A DNA stretch of 64,000 bases from an archaeon (GTDB lineage Archaea > Micrarchaeota > Micrarchaeia > Norongarragalinales > UBA97): NCBI GenBank assembly GCA_020057405.1, contig JAGVFW010000003.1:128001-192000 (forward strand). Reading direction: 5' to 3'. Position numbers and translations under genes: made by a program. This document shows, one piece after another, positions 29,917 through 64,000 of the stretch. The notes beneath the pieces are model-generated. The model was not told the DNA's origin and made no database searches. It saw only the letters and a list, made by a program, of their open reading frames with translations. How positions within the stretch are numbered: the stretch's first letter is position 1; every line of letters begins with the position of its first letter.

Positions 29917-29994
29917 GACAACCAACTCCACCAGATGCTGAAACAAGAACGAAGAGTAACAATCTCGCAAGGTAATATAATTGTTTTGCAATCG

Positions 29995-30635: not shown

Positions 30636-30673
30636 ATCCGGGTTGATTAGTGTTTGCAGTGGTTCTATTGGGG

Positions 30674-39507: not shown

Positions 39508-39570
39508 AGCATTAGAAAAACAAGTCGGGGCTATAAAGCCTTCGTGAAGCATTTCAAAGCCGTCGGCGGC

Positions 39571-40101
39571 TTGGCGGGCATTTTCTTCAAGCAAAAGCGC
39601 GACTCGCAAACAAAAGACGCCTTGCTCTTCCTCCTCCTCTTCGCGGCCTTCGCGGGCGTAGCCTATGGGGCGCTTTTGGCAACAGGCACGGCGCTTAATT
39701 TGCTTGCGGCAAAGTCAAGCGTGCTCGCGATGGGCGCACTCGGGATTGATGCAAGTGTAGTGCCTAACTCCGACTTTCCGCACATTGTCGGGGAAGTGCG
39801 CGGCACGCCCTTTGAGGCCGAAATCAACGGCCTCTGCGCCGGTGCGATTGAGCTTGCTGTTGTCTTTGGCATCGTGATGGCGAGCCGCGACAAGAGCGTT
39901 CGCGCGAGGCTGCTGGGGGCACTCGGCGGTTTTGCGGTTTTCCTCGCCTTTAACCCATTGCGCATCGCCCTTACGCTGAACGCAGTAGGCAGCTGGGCCC
40001 TGCCACTCTTGCACGACGTGCTCTTCCGTCTCTCGCTTCTCTTCGTCATCGTGGGTTACTACGCAGTGTGGTATTACTCGACCGCGAGCAAGCGTTTTTA
40101 A
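39571..40101 (+). CDS. Archaeosortase/exosortase family membrane cysteine peptidase
   Basis: EINGLCAG (Cys), FNPLRI (Arg), LLHDV (His) in a multi-TM protein; start uncertain (GTG 39544 or TTG 39571). Confidence 0.82.
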   Translation: MAGIFFKQKRDSQTKDALLFLLLFAAFAGVAYGALLATGTALNLLAAKSSVLAMGALGIDASVVPNSDFPHIVGEVRGTPFEAEINGLCAGAIELAVVFGIVMASRDKSVRARLLGALGGFAVFLAFNPLRIALTLNAVGSWALPLLHDVLFRLSLLFVIVGYYAVWYYSTASKRF

Positions 40102-40123
40102 CGAGCCCGCGCTAAGCGTTGCT

Positions 40124-42088
40124 ATGCTCAAGGGCTTCATCTCAGCGCCTCTTCTTGGAACGCTAGTTTTCCTCGGCGCTGTTGTCTTCGTCGTGCACAT
40201 CACGCAGATGGAGAAAGCCGAGGTCAGCAGCATAGTCTCCGACATTTACCACAACCGAGTAACCTCAATGCTCGAAGACTACCGCTACGACATGGGCTCG
40301 CTCTTTGCGGTTGCCCTCTCCCGCGCGATTGAACGCTATCTCTCAAGTGAATGCTGGGAAATCTTCGCGCTCAAAAACGACAATTACGCCGAGCCCGGCG
40401 GTGCCGACGGTGGCGGAATTGCGACGCGGGGCGTGCCGCCCGCGGGCTTTCCTAAAACGGGGCACGCGGACTACAACTACGACGACTTTGGCTGGTGCAG
40501 GAACACCGGCACCGGCGCTAACCCGACCTGCAGCGACGTTAGTGAGACGAACAAGCACCCAAACAACCCGAACTACGATTACCTGTGCGCCGAGAACTGC
40601 AACGGCCAGCTCGACTACTACGAGCTGCGCTACAAAAAGTGCACTGAAATAAGCGACATCATCCGCGACGGCATCTGCCCGTATGACCCCAAGTACGGCC
40701 TGACGGCGTGGCTAAACGCGACGCGAACGCCGTTTAACTTCGAGGGAGTCGGCTTCTCCCTCTCGAACCCCGAATTGGTCGAGACATACGTCTCGCAGAT
40801 TTCCTGCACGTTTAGCGGCCTGGGGACGGTCACCAACACGAACATGTTTGAGTACGACTTGGGCTCAAGCAGCGGCTCGTGCAAGGGACGCGACAACTGC
40901 AAAGTCAAGGTCGGAAACGGCTTCCTTACCTGCGCGAAAAAGGACGGCGTGCCCGACGGCACGCTTTCGGTCGGCGACGGCATCAAGAACTGCAGGCAGC
41001 TTGTGGGCGACAGCCTCTTTGACTGCAGAAACTTCGCAGAGGACTTGGGCAACCCGTACCGCTGCTGCAGCCTCTACTCGAACACTGGAGAATGCTGCGC
41101 GCAGTCCGATGGCCCGTCTAAAGGGTGCGACCAAAAGAGCCACGTCATGCCAGGCTGTGACGGGGGCAGCTTTTTCGTCGGCGTCAACGTGCTTGCAAAC
41201 GACAACGTCTACCGCAGCCTGCCGCGGGTCAACGCAACTGACAAGGGCGGAAACGAAATCCAGGGCGGCGCCCTTGGCGATCGCAACTTCACAATCCACG
41301 TCAAGTACCCGGTCTACAAGTACCTCGACGCGGCCTTCAGAACCTACATGCCAATCGCTTACGGCATTTGCGTGAATTCCGCGCACCCAGAGTACGACTT
41401 TGAGGCGCCCGTTAACATGCGCGTGCACGAAGGCCAGGGCGGCGGCACCAGGTCGTGCCCAAGCGGCAACAGCCCGCAGAGCGACTTTGAGGGAATCATC
41501 GAGGGCCTCTGCTACGGCGAGAGCTGCGGGGGCTTCAACGTCAACCCGGAGTGCCTGGGTTTAAACCCGCCGGCTTATTGCGACACGAAAGGCTTTGAAG
41601 GGAACAACAATGGCCAGCATTTCCGCACCAGGGAAAAAGCAATTGAGTATGCAAGGGCCAAATTCTTAGGCGTGTTTTTGAGCCCCGACCCGGCGGTGGG
41701 GACAAGCGTGTGCCGGCTGTTTCGGCCGCTCCTTTGCGACACTTTCGGCCTCTGCGACACGAAAATGCTCATCCGCGGCATGGGCCTGCAAAACCCTGCG
41801 GACGGAAGCGACGGCTTCTACACTCTTTGCCCGCAACCGCCGGCTAGTTGGGATTCTCCAGACTGGACCGCAATCCAAGCGAAGTTGTCAGTCGACAGCC
41901 TCTTCCGCGCTTATGACGACTGCACAAGGAATCCGAACAACCACCAGGCGTGCGCTGCGGTCAACAGCCTGTCGTTTACGATTAAGTTCGTGGACAAGAA
42001 GGCGGAGACTCTAGTGAACCCCATTGCAAACAACTTCTGCTGGCACATGCGGCCGGTGCACGTTAACCCTACCAAGTCAACGCAGTGA
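40124..42088 (+). CDS. Cys-rich extracellular protein with class III (pilin-like) signal peptide
   Basis: MLKG|FISAPLLGTLVFLGAVVFVV, long amphipathic helix, then dozens of Cys; no C-terminal anchor. Confidence 0.75.
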   Translation: MLKGFISAPLLGTLVFLGAVVFVVHITQMEKAEVSSIVSDIYHNRVTSMLEDYRYDMGSLFAVALSRAIERYLSSECWEIFALKNDNYAEPGGADGGGIATRGVPPAGFPKTGHADYNYDDFGWCRNTGTGANPTCSDVSETNKHPNNPNYDYLCAENCNGQLDYYELRYKKCTEISDIIRDGICPYDPKYGLTAWLNATRTPFNFEGVGFSLSNPELVETYVSQISCTFSGLGTVTNTNMFEYDLGSSSGSCKGRDNCKVKVGNGFLTCAKKDGVPDGTLSVGDGIKNCRQLVGDSLFDCRNFAEDLGNPYRCCSLYSNTGECCAQSDGPSKGCDQKSHVMPGCDGGSFFVGVNVLANDNVYRSLPRVNATDKGGNEIQGGALGDRNFTIHVKYPVYKYLDAAFRTYMPIAYGICVNSAHPEYDFEAPVNMRVHEGQGGGTRSCPSGNSPQSDFEGIIEGLCYGESCGGFNVNPECLGLNPPAYCDTKGFEGNNNGQHFRTREKAIEYARAKFLGVFLSPDPAVGTSVCRLFRPLLCDTFGLCDTKMLIRGMGLQNPADGSDGFYTLCPQPPASWDSPDWTAIQAKLSVDSLFRAYDDCTRNPNNHQACAAVNSLSFTIKFVDKKAETLVNPIANNFCWHMRPVHVNPTKSTQ

Positions 42089-42167
42089 CGGCCGGACACA
42101 ATCACTGCTTTTTTAAAGCAGCCTTGCCACAAGTAACTGTCTGTCTTGCAAGTGGGTAAGCGGGGTA

Positions 42168-45100
42168 ATGCGTTCAATGGGTTTGGCCGAGCAATACGAG
42201 GAGTTTCTTGACAAGCTTGATGAACAAGGTTTTCCAAGCCCAAAGATACTAGTTCCCGCACTCGCAATCTTAGCCGTTCTTGCAATAGCCTTCTTCGCCC
42301 TCCCGCTCTTGCAGGGAGTTGCCGGGGGCGGCTCGAAAAAAATACTTCTTGAAGTCCAGGACGCGGGCGGAACTAAAGTCTCCGGCGCTAAGGTAACACT
42401 CCTAACGATTGACGGCACGAAAGTCGATTCAACGGTAACCGACTCAAGCGGCGTTGCCTCTTTTGCCTCCGCACCTGCAAAGGAACTGCAGGTGACTGTC
42501 GAGGCGCCCACCTACAAGGCAGGGTTAATCACGCTTTCCTTCGATAGCCTTGGCGATACGGTCACACTCGAGTCCGACAACGCGCTTGCCAAAGTAAGCC
42601 GCGTGCAGGTTGCAGTCATCGACGAGGCCAGCTTCCCTGTTGCCGGCGCCGCAGTGCGCTTAACTACGTCAGCAGGCGACCGCTCTAGCGTCACCGACGC
42701 TACAGGCATTGCAGAATTCCCGTTTGAAACGCTTCCCGACTCCGCAAGCTTAACTGCGCAGCGCACAAGCTATGACGACGGGGTACTGCAGGGCGTTACC
42801 AAGCTCGAGCTCCAAGGCGCCGCTGACACGCCCATCAGAATCATCCTCAAGAAGCCGGCGCCAACCCCGGCGGCAACTGCAACAGTTCGCGTCACCATCC
42901 TCTCGCCAACTGGCGCCCCCGTAACCGGCGTCCTCGTTTCTCTCGTTGACAGCGCGGGTTCAACTGCGGGAAGCATGCAATCAACGCAGGGAGCGGCAGT
43001 GTTTGACAGCATGGTCCAAGGCAAGACTTACTTCGTGCGCGTGAACGACCCCAAGGGGGCATTCGAGGCGTTTGACGGCCCTGCCTTTACAGTCGACGCC
43101 AACTACAAGGAACTTCAAGTGCAGCTAAAGCGAAAGGCCGCCGAGAAAGTCTACGGCATTGCCGTCGGAATTGAGAACGCAAGAGGCGACCCCATTCCCG
43201 AAGCACAAGTGTCGTTATACTCGCGGGCGACAAACGCCCTCGTTGACACGAAATTCACTGACGAGAACGGCGCCGCGCTCTTTGACGCAACAGCCACCGA
43301 AAGCTACTACGTCACCGCATTCAAGGAAAGCTACTTGCCGGGATTCAAGGCGTCCGCAAAGACGGGAGACAGCATTACACTCACACTTGAAGAACAGGCT
43401 GCGGGCAACTTCGCAGACGCGATAGTGACTGTAACGCAGGACGGCAATCCCGCTTCGGGCGCTGTTGTGTCGCTCGTCGTGCGCGGAGGCTCGCGAAACG
43501 GCTTTTTCCTCGGCCTGCCGACTCTTTACGCCGGTCCCGACGGCATTGCGAGAACGATAGTGCCACGCAAGCTTGACTCTGCTGACTACAAGCTCGCTGC
43601 CTACGCGACTTTGGCCGAAAAGACGGGCGAGAGCGACGCTGTTGCAGTAGGGCAGGAGGGAGCGAAACTGCAGGTCGCTCTAAAGGCGCCCCAAGCATTT
43701 GTTGAGGCAATAGTCACCGACAAGCTCTCCGGCCGCAACGTCTCAAGCGCACTTGCGCAGGCCTTTGCCAACGGCTCTGTCGCCGGCAGCTGCATCACAG
43801 ACGCCCGGGGTGACTGCACGATGACGCTTGAAGCCGGCCGACAGTATACCTTTACTATCGGCGCGCCCGGCTACATTGACTCGACTACCGTCCCCCGGAC
43901 GCTGGCCGCCAACGAGCACTCGGCAATCAACGCCGCGCTCTATTCCGAGGCCGACTTGAAGGGGGCGAAAGCCGAGTTTCTTGGCGTCTTTGACGCTGGC
44001 GAAAACCGCGTTCTTGAAATCGACAACGCGCAAAGCTATCGTGCGCGCTTCCTTCTCTCCGCCCAGCAAGGCAACACGCTTGCCGGCATTCACTTCCGCG
44101 TTGGCAGCGGCACTGACACCGCGCACAACGAGGCGTTCATCACTAAAATCAACGCGCCCGGCGCGACCATGGTAGGCTACGGCCCGGCCCTTGCGGCGCA
44201 AGGCTGCGACGTGCAGGCGAACTCTTCAAACCAGGACGTGCTTGCAAAGTGGGCTGAAGCGGCCTACCCCGCGGGAATCACTTCAAGCAAGCAAATCGAG
44301 TTCACTTTCCGCGTAAAAAACGACGTGCCGGCAGGCACGCACGTTCCAATCGAATACCGCGCTTACGCTTACAAGACGGGCTTGCCGATGCTATCGCCCC
44401 TTGACAAGACCAAGGCAGCGGAACTGCTAAACAAGGCGCAGGGAAATGCCCAAATCACTGCCGCAGACTATTGCGGTGCTGCAAGGGACAACGCCGACCT
44501 GCGCCTCACTAGCCGGCCCCTTGCCTGCGACTCGACCGGCCTGTGCACGCGCTTCTCTTTCGCCAGCACCACGGGCTTAAGCGGCGGCAACGGGTTCCCC
44601 ATCGAGCTTGGCAAGGAATTCTCGCTGCAGTTTACCATAATCTCCCCGCAGGGAATAGACTACACTGGCATTTCCACCGCAAACGCGCAAGTGCTCGGCT
44701 TTGACTACAACACCACCGCGGCATTTAGCGGCACTCCGCTTTCTTCACTAAAGCTGGCAACAGAGACAACCGGCGAGCAGGCCCTTGCAATCAGCGCCTC
44801 GCCCGGGGAGCGGGTTGACGGCACTGTGCGCATGAAGGCAACGCAGCCCGGCGTGCGCGCGCCAGTTGACTTCTTCATCCACGTGCCCGGCGGCGATGCC
44901 AGGCGCGCGCCACTCTTCGTGCGCGTCACTGGCACTAACGCGTTTACGCCCACCACGCAATTTTCCGAATTAATCCTCGGCGTTGACACTAACGAGCGCA
45001 TTACGATAGTTGACAAGCTGGGCAAGCCCGTTACCGACGCGACTTTAACACTCACCGAGTGCAGCGGCTCGCCCCTTGGAGGCAACGAAATCATCATTGC

Positions 45101-48100
45101 GGGAGACGGGTCGACCAACCGAGGCAGAAGCGGCGTTTACCTCATTTCACTTAAGCCATCGGCCATGGGAAGGATGGGAGTGCGGCTAGAGCACACGGAC
45201 TTTGACACTTTCGAGTCCTGCGGCATCACCGTAATCGCAGGCAATTTCATCACAGTAGACCCTGACACCGCCGACTTCTCCGGCAGCTCGACGCCCCAGC
45301 AAGTGCTGCCCATTCACATTGCCTCGACACTGCCGATGCAGTCGCGCGTGAGCACCGCAGTTCGCTGCAGCGTCGGCGGCTCTTACGTTCCAAGCTCTCT
45401 CCTCTCAGTCGAGCCCGCACAATTCACGCTCGATGCATCCGACCGCGATGTTTCGATCAAGCTCACCGAGGGGGGGCGCGCGCAAACCGAGTGCGTCGTT
45501 GTCTTCACGGGCACTGCAGGCAGCGTGAGGACTGTTGCAACGGTCTTTGCAACAATAAACGTCACGTCGCCTCCGACTGCGCAGGAAACCTATCCGCCCG
45601 TCCCCTCAAGCATCAGGCTTGCGGTAGACGACACGGGCGTAGCGCAGGCGTTCTACTACATTGGCGACTTGGGCGAAGTGCGCGGCTGCCGCTTTGCACC
45701 ATCAGGAACCAACCCCATTGACGAGACTGCAATCCAGATGCAGTGCGGCGGGCAAGTACTCTCACTCGCTGTTGCATACAACTTTGCGACCCAATGCCTT
45801 CCCTCGTCCGGCGCGACTGGCCGGATTTTCGTCTCAAGGACAGTCAATGGCTTGCCACAAGCTGACGCCGCAATCGGGCTCGTCTTGACTCCCGGAAGCG
45901 GCGCCAACATTTGCAGCGGGACAAGCGCGACCCCAACGCCAACTCCCGAAGGCGGGGCGACTCCGACTCCTGTTCCAACCGGTTCGCCAAGCCCGACTCC
46001 AAACGGCTATCCGCAATTGCCCTCGCGCGTTGACTTGTTCCTAGACGACTTCGCTTTTGCTGAAAGCTATTATTCCCTTAGCCCTGTTGACGGCCCCATT
46101 TCGGGGTGCGAACTTCGCGCGACGGGGAGCGGCACTGACTCAATAGTGAACTTCGTGCGCATTGACAGCGACGCTTGCGCAAACGGGTTCCTTCACGTCA
46201 TTGCCGACTATAGCGGCTTCCCGGTGCCCCCCGGCCTCTACAAGTCGCTTAAGCAGACTGCGCAAGTGCGGCTTCTGCGCGCAGGACAAACTGCAGTCAC
46301 GCGCGAGCTGTCAATAAGTGCCAGTCGCATGACCGACATTCCGGCAGACGCGCCACGTTGTGGCGACGGAGTGTGTGATTCCGAGCGCGGTGAAGATGGC
46401 GCTTCATGCAGTGCCGATTGCCCGCTTGTCTCAAGCTGCACTGACGGTATCCGCAACGGCGCCGAGGACGGCGTTGACTGCGGCGGAGGCTGCGCAAAGA
46501 ACTGCACTTTCTCGGGCTATCCTGCGCTTCCGGCAACGGTTTCCTTGCGGCTTAACGACGAGGGCCTGGCGCGAAAGACTTACAGCCTCAAGCCAGTGAT
46601 GGACGCCGGCTGCAAGCCCGCATCGTGTGAAGTGCGCGCGTCGTACCTTGACTCGCAAAACCCGCTCACCGCGATTCCAAACTTTGTCTCAGTTGACTCC
46701 GGCCAATGCGCTTTGGGATTGGCGCAAGTGAGTGCGGACTACGGCACGTTCCAGAACCTCTACCGCACTTACGTTGGCATGGGCTCGCTTTACGTGCAGT
46801 GCGAGGATGGCTCTTTCGTGACGCGGCCGCTTCGAGTGTCGGCAGCTGACATGGCAAGCCTGCCTGAGGACCCCGCGACTTGCACTGACCGCATCAAGAA
46901 CCAGCACGAGGAGAATGTCGACTGCGGCGGCCCGTGCAACGCGTGCCCCGCGGCACCCACGTGCACGGATGGAGTCAAGAACGGCAACGAGACTGGCGTT
47001 GACTGCGGCAGCCAGTGCGGCATTTGCGCCGAGAGTCTTTATGAGGCGCTGCCAAACGAAATCAAGCTTTACTTGAACAACGACAGGTTTGCCGAATCGA
47101 CTTACCACACCAAACTATTGTCGGTCAAGCCCGTCACTTGCTCGCAGTTGCGTCCTGCCGGGTTCTTCGAGGACCAGGAACCGTCAACGCTGATTACAAA
47201 TTACGTCCAGCTTGACTGCAGCGGCGGCATCGTGCACGTCACCGCGGATTACGCAGGCTTCCCGACTGAATTATTGTGGCGCGGCCTTTCCCACGGAGGC
47301 AGCTTCCAGGTGAGCTTCGAGCCCATTGCCGGTAGCGGTGCGGTAGGCGGAGTTTCTTCAGGCGTCCAGCCCGGGCCCATGCTAAAGAAAACAATCCGCG
47401 TGATTGTGAGTGCGTCTAATGTTGACGGCGCGCAAATGACTCAGCCCGTCACCGGCATTGACTCGCTTCCAAACTCGATTGTCCTAAACGTTTACTCGCA
47501 GCAAAGCACTCAGCCCGGCCAGTTCGGCGGCGGAAGCGCGTTTGGCATTGACACGGGCAACCAGCGGACGGTGAAAGTCAAGTTCTTGCGCGAACCCGAT
47601 TGCACTCTACAGGGCTTCCTTGGGGCTGGTGCGGGCGGCCAGTTCGGCGGCGGCATTCCGGGCATGCCTTACGGCGCGCCACAAATCGCGTTCCAGCCGC
47701 AATCCTACTGGCAGGGCGCCCCACTGGCAGATGCAGCGGCAATACTCTACCCCGCAAGCGTTCCCCAGTCTTGCAGGGTTCCGGACGTGCTTACTAACCC
47801 CGAACTTTGTCCCGTTTGCCAGCAATACTTGCCCGGATTCAACTACTTTGAGCCCGGCGCCTTCTCCAAACAGTCAATGCAGGAACAGCGGCCGGCTCTG
47901 CAAACACAATACCCGTGGGTTGCAGGCGGCAATCCCGGCTACAACAGCTTCCAGCAGCCCTACGGCGGCTATTCCGGCTACGCTGGCCAGTCGCAACTTG
48001 GTTATGGCAGCAGCCAGGGCAGCTTTGCCGGAATGCAGCAGCAAGTCAATCCAGTTGCAATAGGCTTCCCAACCGGCCTGCCCCCAGGATGCCAGTTGCC

Positions 48101-50129: not shown

Positions 50130-50131
50130 AA

Positions 50132-51331: not shown

Positions 51332-51401
51332 GCTCGGCAATTCGAGTACGCCCCACCAAATTCTTTTTAAACTGCCGAGTGGCTAATTAAAGCGGTTGTA
51401 G

Positions 51402-54400: not shown

Positions 54401-57400
54401 CGTCACCCGCGGTGCTGGAGTGCAAATCAACCAAGGACAGGCCAACACTTTCTCCACTTGCCTCAACAGGCAAGGCGAGACTGGCGGAGGCGGGGGCGAG
54501 ACCGTCGGCGGCGGGCCCATCAACAACTTAAGCGAGTACCGCATCAACATCGACCCTGCTGCAATCCCAGTCCGTGACGGAGTGTGGGAAGTCGCAGGAT
54601 GGCTTCGCGCAACAGCCGCAGTTCCAATTCCCGCAGGCCGGGTGTTCGCCGAGTTTGGCGACGACGGTAGGCCCGACAACCAAGTTGTCGTGCGCAGCAA
54701 CGCCTCAATCCGCATTTACGGCACTGGTCAACTAGTCATCGAAGCGACGCCGGTGCAAATCTACGCAGGCACTGACACGCGCGTTGTCGTCGTCATCAGG
54801 ACTGCACAAGGCGCACCCGTAACCAACACCATCTTGAGTGTAAACAACATTGACGGCACCGACTCGCCGTTTGGCAGCCAATACAGCAACGGCGACGTCC
54901 AACTCGTCGGCGATAACACGCGCGACCGCGGGCAGGACGGCAGGTACGTCTTTACACTTAGGCCGCTTCGCTCGGGCACATTTACATTTGCAGCGGGCGG
55001 CAACTATGACCCGCGCTTTGCCTCCGGGGTCCTCTTAGAGAATGTCGTGCACCACAACTTCGCGGAAGCGACGCCAGCGTCACTATCGCTTGGCTGCACT
55101 GCGCAAACGCTTAGCGTGCGCAACTCACTCGACTACTCAAGCGCCCCGATACAGGTTTTCGTCCGCGAAAGCTGCGTGACCGTGACGGGTGCGACTTGCG
55201 GCACGGTAAACGGCAACACCAACTGCTCTTTTGTCCTCGAACCCCTGGCGGAAAAGACTCTCACGATAACGCCAAAGTTCTCCGGCGACTGCCCGATCGT
55301 CGTTTCCTCAAATCCGGCGCCGCTTCTGCAGTCCAGCCAAACGGTTGGCACTTCAATCGACTGCGCGCAGCTGGAGAGCTCCTGCGCCATCTCTTTTGAC
55401 AAGGACTTTGTGACAGGCGGAGCGCAGGGAACGGTGCGGGCAACCGCGACTTTCGCCAACCTGCGGCCAAGCGACCCTGCAACCAACATCAGCTGCGATT
55501 ACCCTGATGCCGAGGGCACGCGCGTTGGCATTTCCGGCGGAGTAGCCCGCCGCCAGTGCACTTACGCCGAAGTCGGCGGCTTTACTGAATTCACCGTCCA
55601 CGCGGTAAGCGACGGCGGAGTCGAGTGCAGCCAAACGATTACGGTCCTCCCGCCCTCTTCAGTGCCAACTTGCTCCCTAACGTCAAGGCCAATCAATGGA
55701 ACGACGATTGCGCGGCTTAGCGCGGACTTCTTCAACCTGCCAACTTCAATCCAGAAAGCGTTCTTCTTCTGCACGCCCAACGACGACCCCCACGAGGTTG
55801 ACGTCACCCCAAGCGAGGGCGTCGCAAGCGCTACTTTCGACTGCGACTACGCGACGCAAAACGGCGGGCTCTTCAACGCAAGCGCCGCGGCCGGCACTGC
55901 ATTCTGCTTTAACCCGAATGTGCGGCTAACACCACAGGACTCTTGCGCCTTGGGCGGCGAGCAACTGCGGTTCGGCAACTGCTCTACTTCAGCGTCGTGG
56001 CTGCGCTGCGACGAGTCGCCCTCAAACCCTGCAATTGCGCAAGACGCCGCCTGCTGCAGCGAAGTGCTAGGCAGCGGCAGGGTGCTAAAGAACAGCCCAT
56101 CAGTCCACTGCGGTCCAGTCAACCCGCCCCAAGGCAAGTGCGATGACGGAATTGCAAGCCCCGGCGAATGCGGCAGCAACGGGGCGGCGCCACTGCCCTT
56201 GCGCTGCGGCAATGACTTTACGTTTGCAACCGACGGCGCTTGCTGCGCCGAGGTGCTCGGCTACACTTACGACGCCAGCAGGCACGCGTGCATCAAGCCG
56301 TCAACTGCAGGCAAGTGCGTCGTTACCGATGGTACCACTAATGTCGTCACCGACTACGGCGTGTGCTCAACCGTTTACTCTGGCCAGAAATGCGAGGGCG
56401 ACGCCTCCGCACCTGCACTCAAGGGCGAGAACGCCTGCTGCCCGCAGGGACAAGTCTACAACGACAACGCAAAGAAGTGCGTGCCGTCAAACCAGGGCTC
56501 AAGCTCTTGCAGCAGCTTTGCCGACCCCGGCCGCTCAAACTGCTTGAGGCCAAACGCAGTCGGCGTGCCTGCACCATTCCAGTGCTCTGACAGCACGCTA
56601 CAGCAGGAGGGCGCCTGCTGCACCAACATTGTCTCTAACGGCAAGAAGTTCCGCCAGAGCACTGACGGGAACTATTGCGTTGAAATCCCGGCTAATGAGC
56701 TTACACCCGACTGCACGCTAAATGTCACGTCATACACGCGGGGTAGCGTGAGCGAACAGGGTAGCTTAAACGCGACGCTAGTTGCGCTAAACGGCTTTGG
56801 CGGCGGTAGCGGCAAGTTCGACTACTCGTGCGACCGTGGCGTGGCGCAAACGCGCACTCAAACATTTACTATTTCCAACACCCCAGGCGTGACGAAAGGA
56901 CTGCAGTTTAACTGCGACTACCCGCGCCAGTGGCTCGACTATTCAGTAATGCCGGCCACTGCAGCGATTGTAAGCAACAACGAACGCCAGGCCAGCATTG
57001 CCTGCACCTTGGGCGGCCCTGCCGATGTCATCCGCGACGGAGTGATTATCGTGCGGGGCACGAGCGGTGCCAACCTAACGTTCACTGCAAAAGCTTTTGC
57101 CGGCTCGACAGACTGGACGCAACTGACAGAGCGCCTCTTAGGTCCGCTCTCTAGCGTGACGCTCAAGGTGAAGGCGACGTCGCTGCCAACTGGCGTTACC
57201 TCGAGTCAAGTGCACCTTACTTTCGTCTGCGACTCGAGCGAAGAAGAGTCGCAGCAGCAAATGACGGCCTCGCGGACCGAGCAAAACACTTGGACTGGCT
57301 TCTGCAGCTACGCTTCAGCGCGGGGCACGGCCTTCCCGGCAACCCATTCCGCCCGCGCGTTCTACCAAATCGAGGCGACCAACCAAAGCGGCACTTTCAT

Positions 57401-60400
57401 CATACCACCAGTGCCCGCAGGCATCAACGCGGGCTTCCCGCCAATACTAGAGTACGACGCTCCCGTTGCAGCAGGCTTTGCTGAATTCTCTGGCCTGCCT
57501 TACGACGTGCTTCATGCTGCCACTCCACAAGACCAGTCAATGAAGGTAGGGCTTAGCGCGCTTTTCACCGGCCTGCCGCCCTCAATCAACGCTCAATTCA
57601 CTACCGACTGCGGCAACGGCGGACAGACGGTTCAGGCAAGCGCCCTTGCAAGCACTGATGGGAAGGCGACTGCGAAGTTCAACTGCACTTACTCCTCGGG
57701 AACTCCCCAGGACTTCACGGTAAAGGCGCGCTTTGACTACAAGGGGCTTAGCGGCAACCGCATTCTCGCGGCGAATGCAGAAAACACGGGTTCGGTTGCT
57801 TACGCCCCGTCGGGCTCGAATGCCGCGTGCACGTTTGACACCCTGCCGGCGCAAATCATTGCGGGCGACCCCAACTTGAACAACTTCCAGCCCATAGCCC
57901 GCGTGCTTGGCCTGGTGAAGGCACCCAAGTCAGTGCGCATCGACTGCGGCAATGGCGCTCAGGTTGACGCCCGCCTCGAGAACATCGCAGGCGAGGGCCA
58001 GTCGGTTGCAGTGAAGGCAACCGCGAGGACGGCTTGCCGCTACGACTTTAGCTTCCTGCAGGAGGGAGGCACTCAAGTGCAATTCAAGGACGCTCAGCTG
58101 GCAGTGTTTGTCGACGGCGGCGACTGCGAAGTTGCAGGCGGCAGCGAAGTGCACGTCGTTTCCGACAACAACACTCCGACCCTTGCGCTTGCGGGTTTTG
58201 AAGTGACGCCGGCGACTGGCGACCAACTCAACCAGGACGGCAGCGTAAAGACGCCCGGCACTAATGCGGTTGCAAGCTTCACCCCAACCGCAACGGCCGC
58301 ACACGCAATCGCGGACGCGACTTTCAGCGCGAAGATTGACTGCGGCACTGGGAGCACAACCGCGGGAAGCCCGACGACAGTGCAACTGCCTGACGACGGC
58401 AGCGGAACCGTGTTTGCAGCTGATGGCCAAAGCAAGTGCGAGTACAAGCCAGTTGTCGCGGACGCGCAACGCAAGATTACCGTTTCACTCTACCGCACTG
58501 CAGGTTCCAAGACGAACAAGGTCGGTTCTGTGCAAAACACGTTCACGCAAGTCAAGACGCCTGCGCAGGGCGCGGAGTTCCAAGCCTGCAACAACCCGAT
58601 GATGATGATGCTCATGTTTGGGCAAATGAGCGGCGAGGTAGGAGTTGACCAGGGTGTCGAGAACTCCGAGCGCGCGGCCCTGCTTCGGGCCCAGGCGCAA
58701 AAGCTTGCAGACCAAGGGAAAGCCATCGTGCTCAATGCAGACGGCTTTGCAACGAGCCCTGCTGCAACGAGCCGCACGGCTTACTTGTCTTCAGTAATCG
58801 GTTCTTTCGCCACCGAACCCGTTCCGGTCGTCAACCTAGTGCCATCAGCCAACCCCATAACTTTCGACGTCAACGTCCCTGGCGACGGCGCGTCCTGCCT
58901 TACGCCGTCAATCTACGGCGGCACTCCCAACGGGCAGTCAAGTGTAAAGCTTAAGACCGGGCAGACCGCAGCGGTTGCCTTCAGAATCAACCCCGCCGGC
59001 TGCCAAAACATCGCCCAAATCGGAGTCGAGATACGCGCCCAGGTCTCTGGCTCTCCACGCAGTTCAATCATCATCGTCAGCATAGTCAAGCTTAATGGCC
59101 TTGACGCGTACAAGTCGGTCACCGCACCCGGCAACACGGCGGTTCAATTGAGGACAAAAGCTGCAAACCCGCAGGAGCCGTTCGTCATCAACGCCCAGTA
59201 CCAGCCGCTTGCAAGGGACGCGTTCCCGCAGGGCGTGACTTCAGCGATAGTGCCGTTTGATGCGGCGAAACTCGAGAAGCTCGTGGCGTTTGACGTGGTG
59301 GGCAACTCGCTGTCTTCCGACCCGAACGCTGCCCTTGGCTGCAGCGGCAAGGACTTCTGCACGCCCAAGCAGGCGCAAGCCGCGGCCGACAAGCTGGCAG
59401 GCGAAATCGCCGCCGCAATCGGCCCGGTTTCGTCCAAGCGCACTGACTCGGTTCCCCAAGACACGTACATGCGCGCGCTCGCCGACGAGCTTTACAAGCA
59501 AAACTCTGTTTTCGGCAACCAAGTCCAGCAAAACGGCGGTCTTCAGGGCGGACTCTTCAGCAGCCCGCTCGGGCTCTTGGCAATGGGCGGGTTTGGCGGC
59601 AACACGGGCGGTTCGCAAGCCTGCGCCGCGATGATGCAGTGCACAATAATGATGAAGCAGCTGCTCAAGAACAACGCCGCCCTCGGCCCCGACGCACAGG
59701 CGCTTCCACTCATCTTCTGCTCTGACAAGAAAGTGCAGGAATCGCTCTCAAAGGGCGACTCGAGCCAGTTCACCAACCTGTTCATACTCTCGTCGCTTTC
59801 CAACCGGGTCCAGCAGCAAAAGGGGACGATCAAGACCGGCGGCGGTTACGTGATAATGCGCGGACAGGGCCAGGGCGCACAATCCAACTACCCGCTTTCG
59901 ATTCCAATACGCGTTTCGCAAACCAAGGACAGCGAGTCTTCAATGCAGCAAATCACCTGCGACATCAGAAGCGAACTTGACGTCAAATGCAGCCCCAAGC
60001 CTATTACGAACGGGCGCGTCGGCCAGCCGTTCCTCGACTCAAGCGGCATCGTGCAGTTTGATGAAGGCAAGCGCAACCTCTACACAATGAACAAGTACGG
60101 CGCGACCGACGCAGCGGACTGCCACTACCACTGGAGCTCCAACAACCTAGTTGACGACACTAGCGGCTGCAACATACCCGCCGTGCTAACTGCAGTCAAT
60201 GGCCTGTGCTCGGACAAGCCAAACGGCGTGTGCGCGGCCCTTGTGATGAGCGAAGGCAAGCTCTACCGCGGCCTCGTCTCTGGGCAGGGATTCCCAATAC
60301 CTATCGACTATGTCAATGCCGGCACCGGCTTCAAACGCAACACCGAGATGACCGACGACCTCAAGGCGTTCCTCCTTGATGAAGCAAACGCGGGCACCGC

Positions 60401-61571
60401 CATCAAGCAACTGCTTGACGCCAATCCCGGCTGCGCAGCCAAGGCAGGCACCGACGCTAACGGCGTGGCAATCGCCTGCGGAAAGGACAAACTCAAATTC
60501 AACCCGGCTGTCCTGCAGCAACAACAACCGCAGCCACCGAAGGACTACCTCGTAGGGGGATTGCCCGACCTCAACGATAAAGGCATCAAACTCACACTAC
60601 AGGGAAGCGCGCTGCAGCTTCACGCAGTCCAGTTCGGGTTCCTGCCGGACGAAGGCGGGTTGATACACTTGCAAGTCAGCAGCAACAAGTTAAAACTCTC
60701 GATTCCAGGCTATGATCCGACGTTCTGTGCAACGGACAAGGCAGGAGAATACACCGAGGATAACTGCATTGTAACCTTCAGTGAAGTGTTCAGCCCGAGC
60801 AGCCTCTGGGTGCAGATGCCGCGTGGCAACAAAGTCGACGTCGTCATGGCATACGCAGGCTACAATGGCGGCGAGTACGCAGGCAAATCCGACACCCTGA
60901 CGCTCCAACCGCCAACCACCGCAACTTTCACCGTAACGCCGGCCACATATAACTCGGCAACTGAAACGCCATTCACCATCACCCGCAATGGATACCGCGG
61001 GAAAATCACGGCAGTCGGCATGCGCGGTACGACCGAAGCATCAACTTTGAACGTCGATTCAAACACCTACAAACTCGCTCCGGAAGGCTACTCTAGCGTG
61101 GTGTTCAAAGACGAGTTCGGAAAAGCTGTCACGGTTACCCAAACGGCGCCAGACACTTGCCAAGCGTTATTCAACAAACCAACTGTCGAAGTCAAGGCCG
61201 CCCTGATTGCCACGCAAGTGCCCGGCAGCGTGCGCGTGGAAGTCAACGGCAAGATAACCATTGCGCGAAACCCCAGCCTAGCGCCAGGCCAGAACGTTAT
61301 AGTCAAGAAAGCTGAATTTCAAGCCTACCTATCGAGCAACGACAAACAATTGAGTGGAAACAACGTAGTAGTGGACGCAAACACTCCGCTTGTAATCCCC
61401 ATCGAACCCGAGCCAGGCTGGCATTTCGTAGACATTACCAGAAGCGATTGCAACGGGGCAGGCAAGCCGTTCCTGAGGATTAACTACGACGATGACTTTA
61501 TCGGGGGCGAGAAGACCTACACTTGCTACAACGACGCCTGCGACAAGCCACCCGCCGAGCCCACGACTTAG
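51402..61571 (+). CDS. Giant surface protein (3389 aa), paralog of 42168..50129
   Basis: N-terminal LEDKYYDLCDWL..KGMP + TM; carboxypeptidase-regulatory-like repeats; PT linker; Cys-rich and PKD-like repeats. Confidence 0.9.
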   Translation: MGEGEQSEGSGGIYHQLEDKYYDLCDWLVEKGMPVYQYWVEPIEKNGVPSFPISVIILFALLFAIGFGLGAFGGVGNIFAPQTASLDVSVLADGAAVAGAQVSLTIDGGKTFTATTDSGGTVSFSGLPKGARGVIEVTKDGYGVLKRAVVIGEPVTASLQASEVTPPPSQRTVVTFVDEKTQTPLDGVKVVYRDSKLGVQELASSADGKAELPVSDDTVTIFVSYDNYKPTREVITAGSTNKIVFLTAVTSPPPEGCTGVNCPQPKASVAVTVVDPDGNPVDGLVQLFESGNTAGPKSARTANGVALFEDAKAAGVTVYAVFTPDDTATFGNAQSESLTLAEGSNDLVVTVATRPLEGTIKIDLTVQDDAGSKISGARVMLFLAGSTDPVSIQETNELGIASFEAASNVEKVAIAYSPGLLPSDKLLMQSTSQYGTLVLKKPIAGNSGKVKVAVTDTDGHTQVAGADVELRYFEDNYPLGMPPIQTNEVGEALFELVPPDKRFIAVASYGAQRGKSAGFTGSAGNTVNVPVKLDKARGDIAILVRDPISHNPIANANATATVQRNPAGQCATNGQGTCVIKNVEANTAVTLSVNAPGYVVKTIDGLSVPALGILSVIIEDDLVPAALANESRLHVALYDPSCGTPIASSAIEKGRTYCVRVDFNLPTAQANPVGFNVRINGDGTADADFASVTYFQDLDVLRLTPDKLTIKRSNDYATAAGYSCDDAHRKSANKPIKWVNYEFQNVQGNKAILLKVFVKPSAQNGDKLSLNYFSYAARDGRFYRVPQDAVLSTQRSTAARDWCQATSSTAEYTIADGTVAYSKDGALGISFSQAKDGPRASSLATQPGNGFFVHFSGRLFSAPTAPFINVYFADPAGNKRAYALFNEFSYSIGGISLAASRIDFQSPTPSPSPDPTPTPTPSPTATPSPTPNATATPSPTPPPGPTNLTVTVTTCSSGSPLAGATVNAGNDIRNTDSHGVAFFPAMAPGQVQLSISATNYVTRGAGVQINQGQANTFSTCLNRQGETGGGGGETVGGGPINNLSEYRINIDPAAIPVRDGVWEVAGWLRATAAVPIPAGRVFAEFGDDGRPDNQVVVRSNASIRIYGTGQLVIEATPVQIYAGTDTRVVVVIRTAQGAPVTNTILSVNNIDGTDSPFGSQYSNGDVQLVGDNTRDRGQDGRYVFTLRPLRSGTFTFAAGGNYDPRFASGVLLENVVHHNFAEATPASLSLGCTAQTLSVRNSLDYSSAPIQVFVRESCVTVTGATCGTVNGNTNCSFVLEPLAEKTLTITPKFSGDCPIVVSSNPAPLLQSSQTVGTSIDCAQLESSCAISFDKDFVTGGAQGTVRATATFANLRPSDPATNISCDYPDAEGTRVGISGGVARRQCTYAEVGGFTEFTVHAVSDGGVECSQTITVLPPSSVPTCSLTSRPINGTTIARLSADFFNLPTSIQKAFFFCTPNDDPHEVDVTPSEGVASATFDCDYATQNGGLFNASAAAGTAFCFNPNVRLTPQDSCALGGEQLRFGNCSTSASWLRCDESPSNPAIAQDAACCSEVLGSGRVLKNSPSVHCGPVNPPQGKCDDGIASPGECGSNGAAPLPLRCGNDFTFATDGACCAEVLGYTYDASRHACIKPSTAGKCVVTDGTTNVVTDYGVCSTVYSGQKCEGDASAPALKGENACCPQGQVYNDNAKKCVPSNQGSSSCSSFADPGRSNCLRPNAVGVPAPFQCSDSTLQQEGACCTNIVSNGKKFRQSTDGNYCVEIPANELTPDCTLNVTSYTRGSVSEQGSLNATLVALNGFGGGSGKFDYSCDRGVAQTRTQTFTISNTPGVTKGLQFNCDYPRQWLDYSVMPATAAIVSNNERQASIACTLGGPADVIRDGVIIVRGTSGANLTFTAKAFAGSTDWTQLTERLLGPLSSVTLKVKATSLPTGVTSSQVHLTFVCDSSEEESQQQMTASRTEQNTWTGFCSYASARGTAFPATHSARAFYQIEATNQSGTFIIPPVPAGINAGFPPILEYDAPVAAGFAEFSGLPYDVLHAATPQDQSMKVGLSALFTGLPPSINAQFTTDCGNGGQTVQASALASTDGKATAKFNCTYSSGTPQDFTVKARFDYKGLSGNRILAANAENTGSVAYAPSGSNAACTFDTLPAQIIAGDPNLNNFQPIARVLGLVKAPKSVRIDCGNGAQVDARLENIAGEGQSVAVKATARTACRYDFSFLQEGGTQVQFKDAQLAVFVDGGDCEVAGGSEVHVVSDNNTPTLALAGFEVTPATGDQLNQDGSVKTPGTNAVASFTPTATAAHAIADATFSAKIDCGTGSTTAGSPTTVQLPDDGSGTVFAADGQSKCEYKPVVADAQRKITVSLYRTAGSKTNKVGSVQNTFTQVKTPAQGAEFQACNNPMMMMLMFGQMSGEVGVDQGVENSERAALLRAQAQKLADQGKAIVLNADGFATSPAATSRTAYLSSVIGSFATEPVPVVNLVPSANPITFDVNVPGDGASCLTPSIYGGTPNGQSSVKLKTGQTAAVAFRINPAGCQNIAQIGVEIRAQVSGSPRSSIIIVSIVKLNGLDAYKSVTAPGNTAVQLRTKAANPQEPFVINAQYQPLARDAFPQGVTSAIVPFDAAKLEKLVAFDVVGNSLSSDPNAALGCSGKDFCTPKQAQAAADKLAGEIAAAIGPVSSKRTDSVPQDTYMRALADELYKQNSVFGNQVQQNGGLQGGLFSSPLGLLAMGGFGGNTGGSQACAAMMQCTIMMKQLLKNNAALGPDAQALPLIFCSDKKVQESLSKGDSSQFTNLFILSSLSNRVQQQKGTIKTGGGYVIMRGQGQGAQSNYPLSIPIRVSQTKDSESSMQQITCDIRSELDVKCSPKPITNGRVGQPFLDSSGIVQFDEGKRNLYTMNKYGATDAADCHYHWSSNNLVDDTSGCNIPAVLTAVNGLCSDKPNGVCAALVMSEGKLYRGLVSGQGFPIPIDYVNAGTGFKRNTEMTDDLKAFLLDEANAGTAIKQLLDANPGCAAKAGTDANGVAIACGKDKLKFNPAVLQQQQPQPPKDYLVGGLPDLNDKGIKLTLQGSALQLHAVQFGFLPDEGGLIHLQVSSNKLKLSIPGYDPTFCATDKAGEYTEDNCIVTFSEVFSPSSLWVQMPRGNKVDVVMAYAGYNGGEYAGKSDTLTLQPPTTATFTVTPATYNSATETPFTITRNGYRGKITAVGMRGTTEASTLNVDSNTYKLAPEGYSSVVFKDEFGKAVTVTQTAPDTCQALFNKPTVEVKAALIATQVPGSVRVEVNGKITIARNPSLAPGQNVIVKKAEFQAYLSSNDKQLSGNNVVVDANTPLVIPIEPEPGWHFVDITRSDCNGAGKPFLRINYDDDFIGGEKTYTCYNDACDKPPAEPTT

Positions 61572-61647
61572 CAACCACGAATTGCCGCCTTCCGCCGCCT
61601 TAAAAACGCTTTTCCTACATAAGTAATTCAAGCTGTTTTGGTGGATT

Positions 61648-62760
61648 TTGTTGGATATTCCGAACCCGTATCTTGGCAGGGACTACCGCGTTTACATGGT
61701 AGTGCCCGTAGTGCTAATGCTCATCGCGGCATACTTCGTGCTCGTTAACCCCGGCCTAGAGCAGGGAATCGACTTGAAGGGCGGCCTTCTTATCACGCTT
61801 CAGACAAGCAAGCCCGTCGACACTCCGGCACTGCAGGCGGCGCTCTTGAAGTACTCAAGCAGCGTTGAAATCCGCACGATTAGCACTCCAAGCGGAGGCA
61901 CTGGCGTTGAAATCGAGCTTGAAAACAATCCCGAGCTAGAGCAGGCGGAAGCCGACGTAAAGTCGCTTTTAGAGCTTGACAGGACGCTTACCGACGCCGA
62001 GCTTGCAATAGCGGCGCAAAACGGCACTGGCGACACCAGCCGCGTGACTGCCCTCAAGACCCAGATTTTCGCCCAAAGCAAGGCAATACTCGCATCAATC
62101 CGCTCGCAGGCCGTTGTAGGCGACGACGCGCACGAGACAGTCCAGGTTGTTGCCGACGAGCAGGCCGCTGCAAAGGCAGCCTACCGCGAGACCCTCATTA
62201 GCGAAGTGAAGCGGCTAACGGGCACGAGCGACCTGAGCTTCCGCGAAGTCGGCTCGTCGCTCTCCAAGTTCTTCCTCACAAAGACGCGCGAAATCGTCCT
62301 ACTCGCCTTCGCCCTCTCGGCAATAGTCATCTTCCTCGTCTTCCGCTCGATTGCCCCAAGCATTGCAGTCATCTTCGGCGCGGTTGCCGACGTGACGATT
62401 ACGATGGGAGTAATGGCCCTCGTCGGCATTCCCCTCACGCTTGCAACTATCGCCACCCTCTTAATGCTCATCGGCTTTTCACTCGACACCGACGTCATGC
62501 TTACCATGCGCGTGATTAAGCGAAAGGAAGGCACGGCAGAAGAGCGGGCGTTTGAGGCACTCAAGACCGGATTTCTCATGAACCTGACGACCATAGGCGC
62601 GTTTGGGGCGCTCTACATCGTCGCCCAGTGGCTTCAAATCAGCACGTACGCCCAAATCGGGAGCGTGGCGCTCATCGGCGGCTTTGCAGACTTCATCGCC
62701 ACCTGGATGTTCAACGCTGCGCTCATCCTTTGGTGGCACAATAGGGGGCTAAAGAAATGA
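61648..62760 (+). CDS. secF: Protein translocase subunit SecF
   Basis: GIDLKGG, VGSSLS, FRS, LLMLIGFSLDTDVMLT. Confidence 0.92.
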   Translation: MLDIPNPYLGRDYRVYMVVPVVLMLIAAYFVLVNPGLEQGIDLKGGLLITLQTSKPVDTPALQAALLKYSSSVEIRTISTPSGGTGVEIELENNPELEQAEADVKSLLELDRTLTDAELAIAAQNGTGDTSRVTALKTQIFAQSKAILASIRSQAVVGDDAHETVQVVADEQAAAKAAYRETLISEVKRLTGTSDLSFREVGSSLSKFFLTKTREIVLLAFALSAIVIFLVFRSIAPSIAVIFGAVADVTITMGVMALVGIPLTLATIATLLMLIGFSLDTDVMLTMRVIKRKEGTAEERAFEALKTGFLMNLTTIGAFGALYIVAQWLQISTYAQIGSVALIGGFADFIATWMFNAALILWWHNRGLKK

Positions 62761-64000
62761 ACTACGCCGGCCTCCTTGGCAACAGGCGCATCCAAATTGT
62801 CATCTTAGTCGCGCTAGTGTCGCTAGCCGCGGTCTTGCTTCGCGACTTAAATCCCTCAACGCTTGACGTCAACCTAGGCATCGAGTTTGTCGGCGGAGTG
62901 AGGATTCCGGTCATGCTCGAGCACAGCATCGATGCAGTGGCTATGGACCAAATGGTCGAGACGGTAAAGACGCGCATCAACAAGTACGGCCTCTCACAGG
63001 CGGTCGTGCGGCCGGTTGGCGACAGCGAAATACTCGTTGAAATCCCGCAGGCAGATGACAGCGTGATAAAGAGCGTCGAGACGCTCCTAAAGGACCAAGG
63101 CAAGTTTGAGGCAGTGATTGACGGCAAGCTCGCGCTTGCTGGGAGCGACATTCTTGCAAACGCAGTAGGCGGGGCCAGCAACGAAGGCGTCACGAGCACG
63201 GCTGGTGGCGGTGTTGGCTGGTACATTGGCTTTGCCGCATCGCGGCCCGGTGCCGAGCGGTTTGCCGCGGCGGCGACTGGAAAGGCATACTACCCGGTCT
63301 ACATGTTCCTCGACAGGCCCTCAAACGCGTCGATTTTGTTTGACAACGCTTGGCTCAACAACACTTCAGACTCGGCCCGCATCATGGGAGCAATGCAAAA
63401 AGCGGTTGCCAAGCAGGGCGACGACCTCGAAATACTCTCGCCATCCGACTTTTCCAACAACACGCCGGCGTCATTGGCCACGAAAACCGTTTTCGTCGCA
63501 GACAAGGACCTTGCAACCGACCACCCCGACATCTACCGCAAGCTACAGCAACTGGGCTTCAATGAAACGCCGTCAACAAGCGGCAAGCGCTTGATTCTTT
63601 TCGAGCGGGCTGACATGATTCCCCTCACTTACGTCAGCGAACAGTCCGAGATGATTGTGAATGACTGGCGCGCAATTGGCCTGCTTTCTGGCCCGACCCT
63701 CTCCCCCGGCCTTGCAAACGGGTTTGTCTCGCAGTTCTACCAGGTGAATGGAGGCGCCCGCGGCAACACGCCCGACGAGCAGAAGAAGAATGCTATTGCT
63801 GAAATCAAGCACTTAAAGACGGTCATCAGCGGCGGGAGGCTGCCGGTTAGCACGTTTATCGGCTCAAGCTACACTGTCGCCCCGTCACTCGGCAAGCAGT
63901 TCCTCAACTACAGCGCAATCGGCGTGCTCCTCAGCGTCGCCATAGTCGCCGGTCTAATCGTCCTGCGCTACAGGAAAGTCCTCCTCGCCGTGCCCATCGT
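62757..64000 (+). CDS. secD: Protein translocase subunit SecD, truncated by the window end
   Basis: ATG overlaps the secF stop; NLGIEFVGGVRI, RINKYGL, GKFEA, SGGRLPV, VAPSLG; frame open to the window end. Confidence 0.9.
   Translation, partial: MNYAGLLGNRRIQIVILVALVSLAAVLLRDLNPSTLDVNLGIEFVGGVRIPVMLEHSIDAVAMDQMVETVKTRINKYGLSQAVVRPVGDSEILVEIPQADDSVIKSVETLLKDQGKFEAVIDGKLALAGSDILANAVGGASNEGVTSTAGGGVGWYIGFAASRPGAERFAAAATGKAYYPVYMFLDRPSNASILFDNAWLNNTSDSARIMGAMQKAVAKQGDDLEILSPSDFSNNTPASLATKTVFVADKDLATDHPDIYRKLQQLGFNETPSTSGKRLILFERADMIPLTYVSEQSEMIVNDWRAIGLLSGPTLSPGLANGFVSQFYQVNGGARGNTPDEQKKNAIAEIKHLKTVISGGRLPVSTFIGSSYTVAPSLGKQFLNYSAIGVLLSVAIVAGLIVLRYRKVLLAVPI

Follow-up and report, generated by a model that had tools for sequence, protein, structure and literature searches.

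On a 24-kb stretch of a Micrarchaeota genome, two genes for giant surface proteins lie in line with genes for a small membrane enzyme, a cysteine-rich pilin-like protein, a secreted protein and the export components SecF and SecD, an arrangement that raises the question of whether these genes encode one apparatus or several. The stretch occupies positions 39571-64000 of the window, by which we mean the whole 64,000-nucleotide piece of DNA that was analyzed (G000:C6:128001-192000); the window's genome, G000, comprises 1.22 Mb in 17 contigs and is 90.6% complete. Relatives are labeled G###, contigs C# and families within the order f1 to f10, with f1 the window genome's own family. We find that the enzyme gene, the pilin-like gene and a giant with an N-terminal anchor form a conserved, order-wide core. 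We regard it as fairly probable that the stretch is a composite, made up of a cassette that is found across the order and is accessory to a type IV pilus-like machine, a giant-protein addition specific to f1, and the housekeeping genes secFD. The genes are as follows.

39571..40101, + strand: mini-archaeosortase ("ArtMini"), 176 amino acids (aa), TTG start, assigned to an unnamed exosortase/archaeosortase subfamily
40124..42088, + strand: Cys-rich type-IV-pilin-like protein, 654 aa, class III signal-peptide-like N-terminus
42168..50129, + strand: giant surface protein, 2653 aa, short-form N-terminal anchor motif, CarboxypepD_reg matched in 5 stretches
50132..51331, + strand: orphan secreted protein, 399 aa, Sec-type signal peptide
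51402..61571, + strand: giant surface protein, 3389 aa, long-form N-terminal anchor motif with VPSFP before the transmembrane helix
61648..62760, + strand: SecF, PF02355 (80.7 bits) and PF07549
62757..64000, + strand: SecD, running past the window end (551 aa in the genome), PF21760 and NCBIfam SecD models

A check of open reading frames (ORFs) and translations bore out an earlier note on this DNA in that these genes are real, lie at these coordinates and are all on the + strand. The ORF listed for the enzyme opens at 39433 (222 aa) but overlaps a minus-strand EamA gene, and the TTG at 39571 was taken as its start.

A conserved core of enzyme, pilin-like protein and N-anchored giant

The enzyme had been labeled a sortase-family peptidase; it is instead a member of the exosortase/archaeosortase family, which is unrelated to sortases. 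Against the family signature TIGR04178 (cut-off 23 bits) the 176-aa form scores 23.1 bits, and 25 bits, above cut-off, in a search of the genome, compared with 22.4 bits for the over-long 222-aa version, and all 30 aligned orthologs match this signature (best E 6.7e-12); a Pfam scan of the window proteins returned no PF09721 match to the 176-aa enzyme. Five residues (C89, N128, R131, H148 and R153) are invariant across the 30 sequences. An AlphaFold2 model of the enzyme, with a predicted local distance difference test score (pLDDT) of 91.9, has no match among PDB folds (best E 0.38), and a profile search of PDB sequences with the enzyme family returned 0 matches. Given that basic residues are found at both termini and in the 104-115 loop, the positive-inside rule would place the conserved residues at the outer face of the membrane. 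At E <= 0.01 the orthologs match the subfamily models for ArtD (24/30), ArtB (13/30) and ArtE (7/30), and the window enzyme scores 20-22 bits against small-archaeosortase models whose cut-offs are 125-150; none of the named subfamily models (ArtA-ArtF, pacearchaeosortase and heimdallarchaeosortase) comes near its cut-off. As all subfamily scores fall this far below cut-off, we assign the enzyme, by its sequence, to an unnamed subfamily.

To count occurrences we used 68 genomes of the window genome's order, 22 of them high-quality, together with a phylum sample of 34 genomes inside the order and 266 from other orders of the same phylum. The enzyme gene is present in 65 of the 68 order genomes and in all 22 of the high-quality ones, and the enzyme query found it in 0 of the 266 sampled genomes outside the order.

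The adjoining gene, found in 62 of the 68 order genomes, encodes a 654-aa protein with 32 cysteines, and several cysteine columns are invariant in its alignment. All 13 aligned sequences begin with [KR][GA] followed by F-[IV]-[AS]-A-P-L-[IL]-G-T and a hydrophobic stretch, and the leader has the form of class III signals: it is short and basic, with Gly or Ala at -1 and a hydrophobic N-terminal helix behind it. The structure model (pLDDT 68; predicted template modeling score, pTM, 0.72) consists of a single helix spanning residues 3-75 and then a globular head. A search of 5.8 billion proteins yielded only 8 relatives.

Linkage was derived from gene coordinates, except that the count linking the pilin-like gene to the giant was tallied by hand. 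In 30 of the 65 genomes with the enzyme, the pilin-like gene starts within 300 nt 3' of the enzyme gene, and in 10 more at 301-2000 nt; in the remaining genomes it lies on another contig (20, including all 11 of f2), is without a match (4) or is 3.5 kb away (1). Downstream of the pilin-like gene stands the best-matching short-motif giant in 37/62 genomes, and the triad is intact in 7 of the 10 relatives in which 40 kb was examined, the three exceptions all belonging to f2. The earlier note had proposed that these genes are linked both to one another and to secFD: the enzyme, the pilin-like gene and the N-anchored giant are indeed linked across the order (40/65 and 37/62), whereas secFD is not linked to them. 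In the same-genus genome G329 the enzyme gene is directly followed by the short-form giant, and the pilin-like gene is on another contig, two genes 3' of, and convergent with, a different giant carrying the anchor motif.

The type IV pilus machine and a conserved C-terminal tag

The earlier note matched the locus to no named system; in relatives, however, the cassette flanks a type IV pilus machine. In G056, G145, G077 and G113 a T2SSE ATPase of ~750 aa and a T2SSF-like platform are encoded just 5' of the enzyme, in three of them beyond the gene for leucyl-tRNA synthetase (LeuRS), and in G113 the platform ORF ends 1 nt before the enzyme ORF starts. An ATPase ortholog is present in 66/68 genomes and lies <= 6 kb from the enzyme in 18 (10 of f3, 6 of f4 and 1 each of f6 and f10). 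Contig C8 carries the ATPase and platform orthologs of G000 (68% and about 50% identity), which follow a LeuRS fragment and precede six small pilins; G000 also encodes a prepilin peptidase and several T2SSE ATPases. Many of the ATPase orthologs are split into two matches, at query residues ~481-486 or ~542, within one frame of 940-1,790 aa (for example G077:C20:39240-43001 and G141:C7:177060-180881), which suggests intein-like insertions at two sites; the 754-aa copy of G000 is not split.

The pilus cluster of G000 also contains the gene for a protein with a conserved C-terminal tag:

G000:C8:12347-17362 (locus L079): tag protein, 1,671 aa, pilus cluster; orthologs of 1,300-1,700 aa

The protein as a whole has no family match. 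In G000 the tag takes the form [LI]PS[WF]P, a membrane helix and a basic tail at the C-terminus, and across the order 30/30 loci have [LIMV]-P/T/A-[SA]-[WFVI]-[PS], a hydrophobic stretch and at least 2 Lys/Arg; the strict P[SA][WFVI]P is present in 27/30 and the spacer from motif to Arg is exactly 19 residues in 23/30. None of the curated -CTERM models in NCBIfam (PGF-CTERM, PEF-CTERM and others) matches the tag above cut-off, and the only match, to MYXO-CTERM (14 bits against a cut-off of 20), covers the helix and basic part. The C-terminus has the makeup of a textbook tripartite signal, and by this comparison the tag is a putative sorting signal not catalogued in that NCBIfam release. The tag protein is encoded in 63/68 order genomes and in 0/266 outside, the same distribution as that of the enzyme, and within ~13 kb of the ATPase in 8 genomes.

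A C-terminal helix is absent from the pilin-like protein and, beyond their N-terminal anchors, the window's giants, the pilin-like protein and the 399-aa protein have no C-terminal or internal membrane helices. Since the giants and the pilin-like protein lack such a helix while the tag is conserved and distributed together with the enzyme, we took the tag protein to be the likeliest substrate of the mini-archaeosortase, a proposal to which we give roughly an even chance.

Within the 372,678 residues of G000 ORFs, PS[FW]P occurs 4 times, each just before a hydrophobic helix: once at the C-terminus of the tag protein and three times at the N-terminus of long-form giants, namely as the VPSFP of the 3389-aa protein (window 51546-51560) and in the proteins encoded at G000:C4:35397-43469 and C6:91519-94842. 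The sharing may be a coincidence or may mark a common recognition element, and the flanking charges suggest opposite membrane orientations at the two kinds of site.

Giants, secFD and other neighbors

The two giants had been described as paralogs, and this is true of their first ~880 residues (26% identity, E 5e-29), which consist of repeated CarboxypepD_reg-type beta-sandwich domains; the remaining parts are unrelated to each other and have no family match. Self-BLAST revealed no internal repeats in the giants at E <= 1e-4. Both begin with an acidic segment that lacks a signal peptide; [KR]G and a Pro-rich motif come next, ahead of a single membrane helix. The 2653-aa protein has the short form of the motif, ...LEEKG-[IVF]-P-x-P-[RK], and the 3389-aa protein a long form, which is duplicated and ends G-[IV]-P-S-F-P. 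Five large ORFs of G000 carry the N-terminal motif, as do all 34 order genomes of the phylum sample (1-7 matches each), compared with 1/266 outside, a weak match. As speculation, this motif could act as a class III (prepilin) signal: the helix is preceded by [KR]G, although such signals do not typically have Pro at +2.

The short-form giant type is present in 65/68 order genomes and can be aligned across families over its first ~1140 residues only. Identity to G329 is 66% for the enzyme and 60% for SecF, 48% for the N-terminal part of the short-form giant, 42-47% for the pilin-like protein and 33% for the distal part of the long-form giant. Compared with expectation, the giants are moderately poor in N-glycosylation sequons (7 found for 13.1 expected, and 17 for 28.4). 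The distal divergence, the limits of alignability and the depletion of sequons together suggest that the giants are exposed, fast-evolving contact proteins. In G086, G145 and G077 the orthologs of the 2653-aa giant have, ~60-590 residues from the C-terminus, a stretch rich in Gly/Ala that is weakly hydrophobic and that the window's protein lacks.

The 399-aa protein, which the earlier note called a secreted partner, is rejected as a conserved one and proved to be an orphan: a search of 1.84 billion representatives yielded only 1 homolog, G000 encodes no paralog, and there is no family match in Pfam or NCBIfam and no match in the loci of 10 relatives. At the position of its gene, G225 encodes four unrelated secreted proteins without a Pfam family.

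SecF and SecD are identified by Pfam domains that all score above cut-off (SecD_SecF_C 80.7, Sec_GG 26.3 and SecD_1st 33 bits) and by archaeal NCBIfam models, and secF is a single-copy gene present in 66/68 order genomes. Directly 5' of it lies a long-motif giant in G000, G329, G225 and G332, but not in G331 (4/5 f1 genomes in which the adjacency could be resolved, G328 and G330 being those in which it could not). Among the 57 genomes outside f1 with matches to both enzyme and secF, the two are on the same contig in 4, at 19, 23, 52 and 228 kb, and secFD therefore drops out as the apparatus part that it had been proposed to be. It has instead neighbors of its own: 3' of the window come the end of secD, a 165-aa gene, a 181-aa gene, SppA (peptidase S49), CDP-archaeol synthase (CarS) and a second archaeosortase, and G056 and G148 have secFD, the 181-aa gene, CarS and the second archaeosortase in the same order. 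These conserved neighbors, together with the distance from the enzyme outside f1, mark secFD as part of a housekeeping block for export and processing that also includes SppA, CarS and the second archaeosortase and that a giant abuts only in f1. As a side observation, this block compactly combines export, signal-peptide clearance, lipid synthesis and sorting.

The second archaeosortase is 194 aa long, passes the PF09721 cut-off with 37.6 bits and is encoded one base 3' of the CDP-archaeol synthase gene. It lies <= 6 kb from secF in 14/33 genomes and is found in 32/34 genomes inside the order, with 4/266 weak matches outside. The two archaeosortase genes are 3 kb apart in G136 (G136:C6:4376-8534) and ~14-18 kb apart in the f2 genomes G131, G172 and G125, where neither adjoins secF.

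Further features in and around the window are these:

30650..37243, + strand: sequon-rich glycoprotein-type surface protein, 2197 aa, C-terminal transmembrane helix and basic tail (context)
39532..39537, + strand: TATA-like box 5' of the archaeosortase gene, from a pattern scan of intergenic stretches, consensus match only
G000:C6:193506-195604 (L066:3506-5604): SppA (minus strand), CDP-archaeol synthase and second archaeosortase, 1.5-3.6 kb past the window end

The same intergenic scan gave further TATA-like boxes at 42112 and 51366, likewise consensus matches only. Such boxes and T-runs split the stretch into at least 3-4 units, which are the enzyme and pilin-like genes (22 nt apart), the 2653-aa giant with the 399-aa gene (2 nt apart), the 3389-aa giant, and secF-secD, whose reading frames overlap by 4 nt. 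Separate boxes, short gaps and overlaps agree with the earlier suggestion that this is a cluster and not one operon.

Upstream of the enzyme, the 2197-aa protein at 30650-37243 (+) contains 133 N-x-S/T sites, where 44.7 are expected from shuffles, and a related glycoprotein-type surface protein is encoded at 28183-29991 (-). Each of the two combines a coiled-coil-like segment and a Pro-rich linker with a helix and a basic tail at the C-terminus, and proteins resembling the 2197-aa one are also encoded 5' of the enzyme in G329 and G225; the giants have no similarity to the upstream glycoprotein. The two glycoproteins may be substrates of the second archaeosortase. Between the glycoprotein and enzyme genes, at 37282-38492, lies an overlapping pair of genes (180 and 223 aa) of no clear family, and a similar overlapping pair occupies the same place in G329. 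The rest of the window holds archaeal housekeeping genes, among them those for V-type ATPase subunits, an aIF2-gamma-like protein and class I aminoacyl-tRNA synthetases.

Readings of the locus and relation to known systems

The gene identities, their conservation, the linkage counts and the conserved tag are observations on the genomes themselves. Under the composite reading, which we favor, positions 39571-50129 would hold a cassette, conserved across the order, that serves a type IV pilus-like system as an accessory. The mini-archaeosortase would be a membrane cysteine transpeptidase-type enzyme, with its conserved Cys and Arg at the outer face, and would most likely cut the [LI]PS[WF]P, helix and basic tail from the 1,671-aa protein encoded on C8, which, by analogy with ArtA, the enzyme would then re-anchor. 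The Cys-rich protein would be a prepilin; once the prepilin peptidase had trimmed it, the pilus ATPase and platform would build it in as a minor or tip pilin bearing a large head. Held by its N-terminal helix, the 2653-aa giant, with a conserved beta-sandwich stalk and a fast-evolving distal part, would serve as a contact or adhesion fiber. The 399-aa orphan and the 3389-aa giant would represent a further copy of the giant family added in f1, and secF-secD general export machinery whose adjacency probably stems from lineage-specific gene order only.

Several points weigh against this account. In G000 the cassette lies apart from the pilus machine and the tag protein, which are encoded on a different contig (C8), and the enzyme is never <= 6 kb from the ATPase in f1 (0/7), f2 (0/11) or f5 (0/6); in f2 the three cassette genes are themselves dispersed. 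Many contigs are short, such that "another contig" in the linkage counts often means that placement is not settled, and the genomes of the order are related, such that the counts are not independent. The pilin-like protein has no Pfam or NCBIfam match at E <= 0.01 and matches no pilin family model, and neither its model nor its head has a PDB fold match (best Foldseek E 0.13). The second archaeosortase is nearly as restricted to the order as the first, and the distribution profiles cannot tell which enzyme cuts the tag; G077 and G192, in which the mini-enzyme and the tag protein are present and the second archaeosortase has no match, are the only two genomes that favor the mini-enzyme. The presence of PS[FW]P and a helix also at the N-terminus of long-form giants is put to no use by this explanation. 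Finally, all of the biochemical steps, and a role in adhesion or host attachment, are inferred.

The shared PS[FW]P is the starting point of a different reading, in which the proteins of the cassette itself are targets of the mini-archaeosortase: the enzyme would read [ILV]PS[FW]P and a helix both at the N-terminus of long-form giants and in the C-terminal tag, and would release, re-anchor or covalently couple the giants to the pilin-like protein in the manner of the sortase-built pili of Gram-positive bacteria. The tight linkage of the enzyme, pilin-like and giant genes, the invariable position of the motif just before a hydrophobic helix and the order-restricted distribution common to the N-terminal motif, the tag and the enzyme all speak for it, and an archaeosortase able to process a tripartite signal that is not at the C-terminus is described in the available part of one review (PMC6098224). 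Against it, the basic residues that precede the giants' motif and the acidic N-terminal segment without a signal peptide should leave the motif facing the cytoplasm, on the side opposite to the outer face predicted for the enzyme's conserved residues. Moreover, the three giants are paralogous, which reduces the four occurrences of PS[FW]P to two independent ones, a count near the expectation from composition by a rough estimate, and the short-form giant that actually lies 3' of the enzyme is without PS[FW]P. We consider this reading unlikely. Its bolder form, to which we give equally little credence, holds that the enzyme is dedicated to sorting for the pilus and recognizes a new signal, [ILV]PS[FW]P directly before a membrane helix, on the C-terminus of the tag protein and on the N-terminal anchors of the giants, and that the enzyme, or the pilus machine with it, would load, release or couple giants onto a filament capped by the Cys-rich pilin.

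Less likely still, the substrates of the enzyme would be the upstream sequon-rich glycoproteins (30650-37243 and 28183-29991), and the locus a unit for anchoring surface-layer (S-layer) proteins or glycoproteins instead of a pilus accessory. Proteins of this type lie 2-3 kb 5' of the enzyme in G000, G329 and G225, and their tails loosely recall PGF-CTERM in having a helix, basic residues and a stretch of small residues that resembles "GG[FIL]". The tails, however, match no -CTERM model and are poorly conserved even among close relatives, and the neighborhood occurs only in f1 among the loci examined; the relatives G056, G145, G077 and G113, of f3 and f4, have LeuRS and/or the pilus ATPase and platform upstream. 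The second archaeosortase beside CarS is an equally good candidate for processing these proteins.

We give very little weight to the view that the whole stretch is one integrated surface or host-attachment apparatus, with secFD as the dedicated exporter of the giants and the archaeosortase as their processing enzyme: although the genes share one orientation and all their products are exported or membrane proteins, a giant lies directly 5' of secF in four f1 genomes, and SecDF could plausibly help to export very large proteins, the single-copy secF never adjoins the cassette outside f1 and has its own conserved neighbors in SppA, CarS and the second archaeosortase, the giants are without a C-terminal sorting signal, and separate TATA-like boxes and T-runs divide the region.

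Among known systems, the accessory-cassette reading finds its closest comparison for the enzyme in ArtA and PGF-CTERM of Haloferax volcanii, as covered in the available part of the review (PMC6098224), with which it shares the family signature (TIGR04178/PF09721) and, by residue type, the conserved Cys and Arg; the same part of the review reports conserved residues to be important in ArtA. As in the ArtA system, the candidate substrate here combines a motif, a membrane helix and a basic tail. Unlike ArtA, the enzyme is only 176 aa long, a minimal helix core, and scores far below the ArtA model cut-off (5/30 orthologs match TIGR04125 weakly); the motif is [LI]PS[WF]P and not PGF, there is apparently one substrate per genome, and the ties of the gene are to a pilus cluster and to pilin-like and giant genes, not to an S-layer glycoprotein. 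ArtB, ArtD and ArtE (TIGR04144, TIGR04175 and TIGR04124) are similar in size and are the best-scoring named subfamilies, but the enzyme falls far below their cut-offs. The cognate signals of small archaeosortases are VPXXXP-CTERM and PIP-CTERM, and both differ from the tag described here.

With archaeal type IV pili the Cys-rich protein shares a class III signal-like N-terminus and a long N-terminal helix, and G000 has the prepilin peptidase, T2SSE ATPase, T2SSF platform and small pilins of such a system; unlike archaeal type IV pilins, the 654-aa protein has a Cys-rich head without family or fold match, and its gene is outside the pilus locus in G000. Compared with other Micrarchaeota giants that carry this N-terminal motif, the window's giants are two copies in tandem that lie away from the pilus machine and abut secFD. 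The SecDF genes are ordinary for archaea, single-copy and order-wide, and their position after a giant alone is specific to f1. By its described features, the giants also do not map onto the characterized S-layer protein of Micrarchaeota: this protein, SLP_Mh, is about 100 kDa, heavily glycosylated and has S-layer domains, as described in the available part of a preprint (bioRxiv 10.1101/2021.04.28.441871), whereas the giants, set apart by that description, are 2653 and 3389 aa long, sequon-depleted and without an S-layer domain match. In the literature covered, which excluded supplements and subscription journals, we found no account of an archaeosortase encoded inside a pilus locus or, in Micrarchaeota, inside a pilus or giant-protein cluster. 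The core is apparently an unpublished variant of known systems, one that would combine archaeosortase sorting of the ArtA/PGF-CTERM kind with a type IV pilus of archaea.

To the open question of how DPANN archaea, Micrarchaeota among them, stay attached to their hosts, the cassette contributes a set of candidate genes found across the order. They offer a pilin whose head is novel, fast-evolving giants with a unique anchor, an archaeosortase outside the named subfamilies and a putative new sorting signal. Cryo-tomography of a cultured Micrarchaeon revealed thin pilus-like filaments on the symbiont, with no genes named in the available part of that report (PMC11329633). The earlier reading of an integrated apparatus is supported in part, and our analysis corrects the place of secFD in it, which is a neighbor and not a component. 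If the reading of a pilus-dedicated sorting enzyme were true, the system would be an archaeal counterpart of sortase-built pili and a cell-contact organ of these symbionts. If the enzyme serves the pilus, it would join archaeosortase sorting and type IV pili, two subjects that are treated separately in the available part of the review (PMC6098224).

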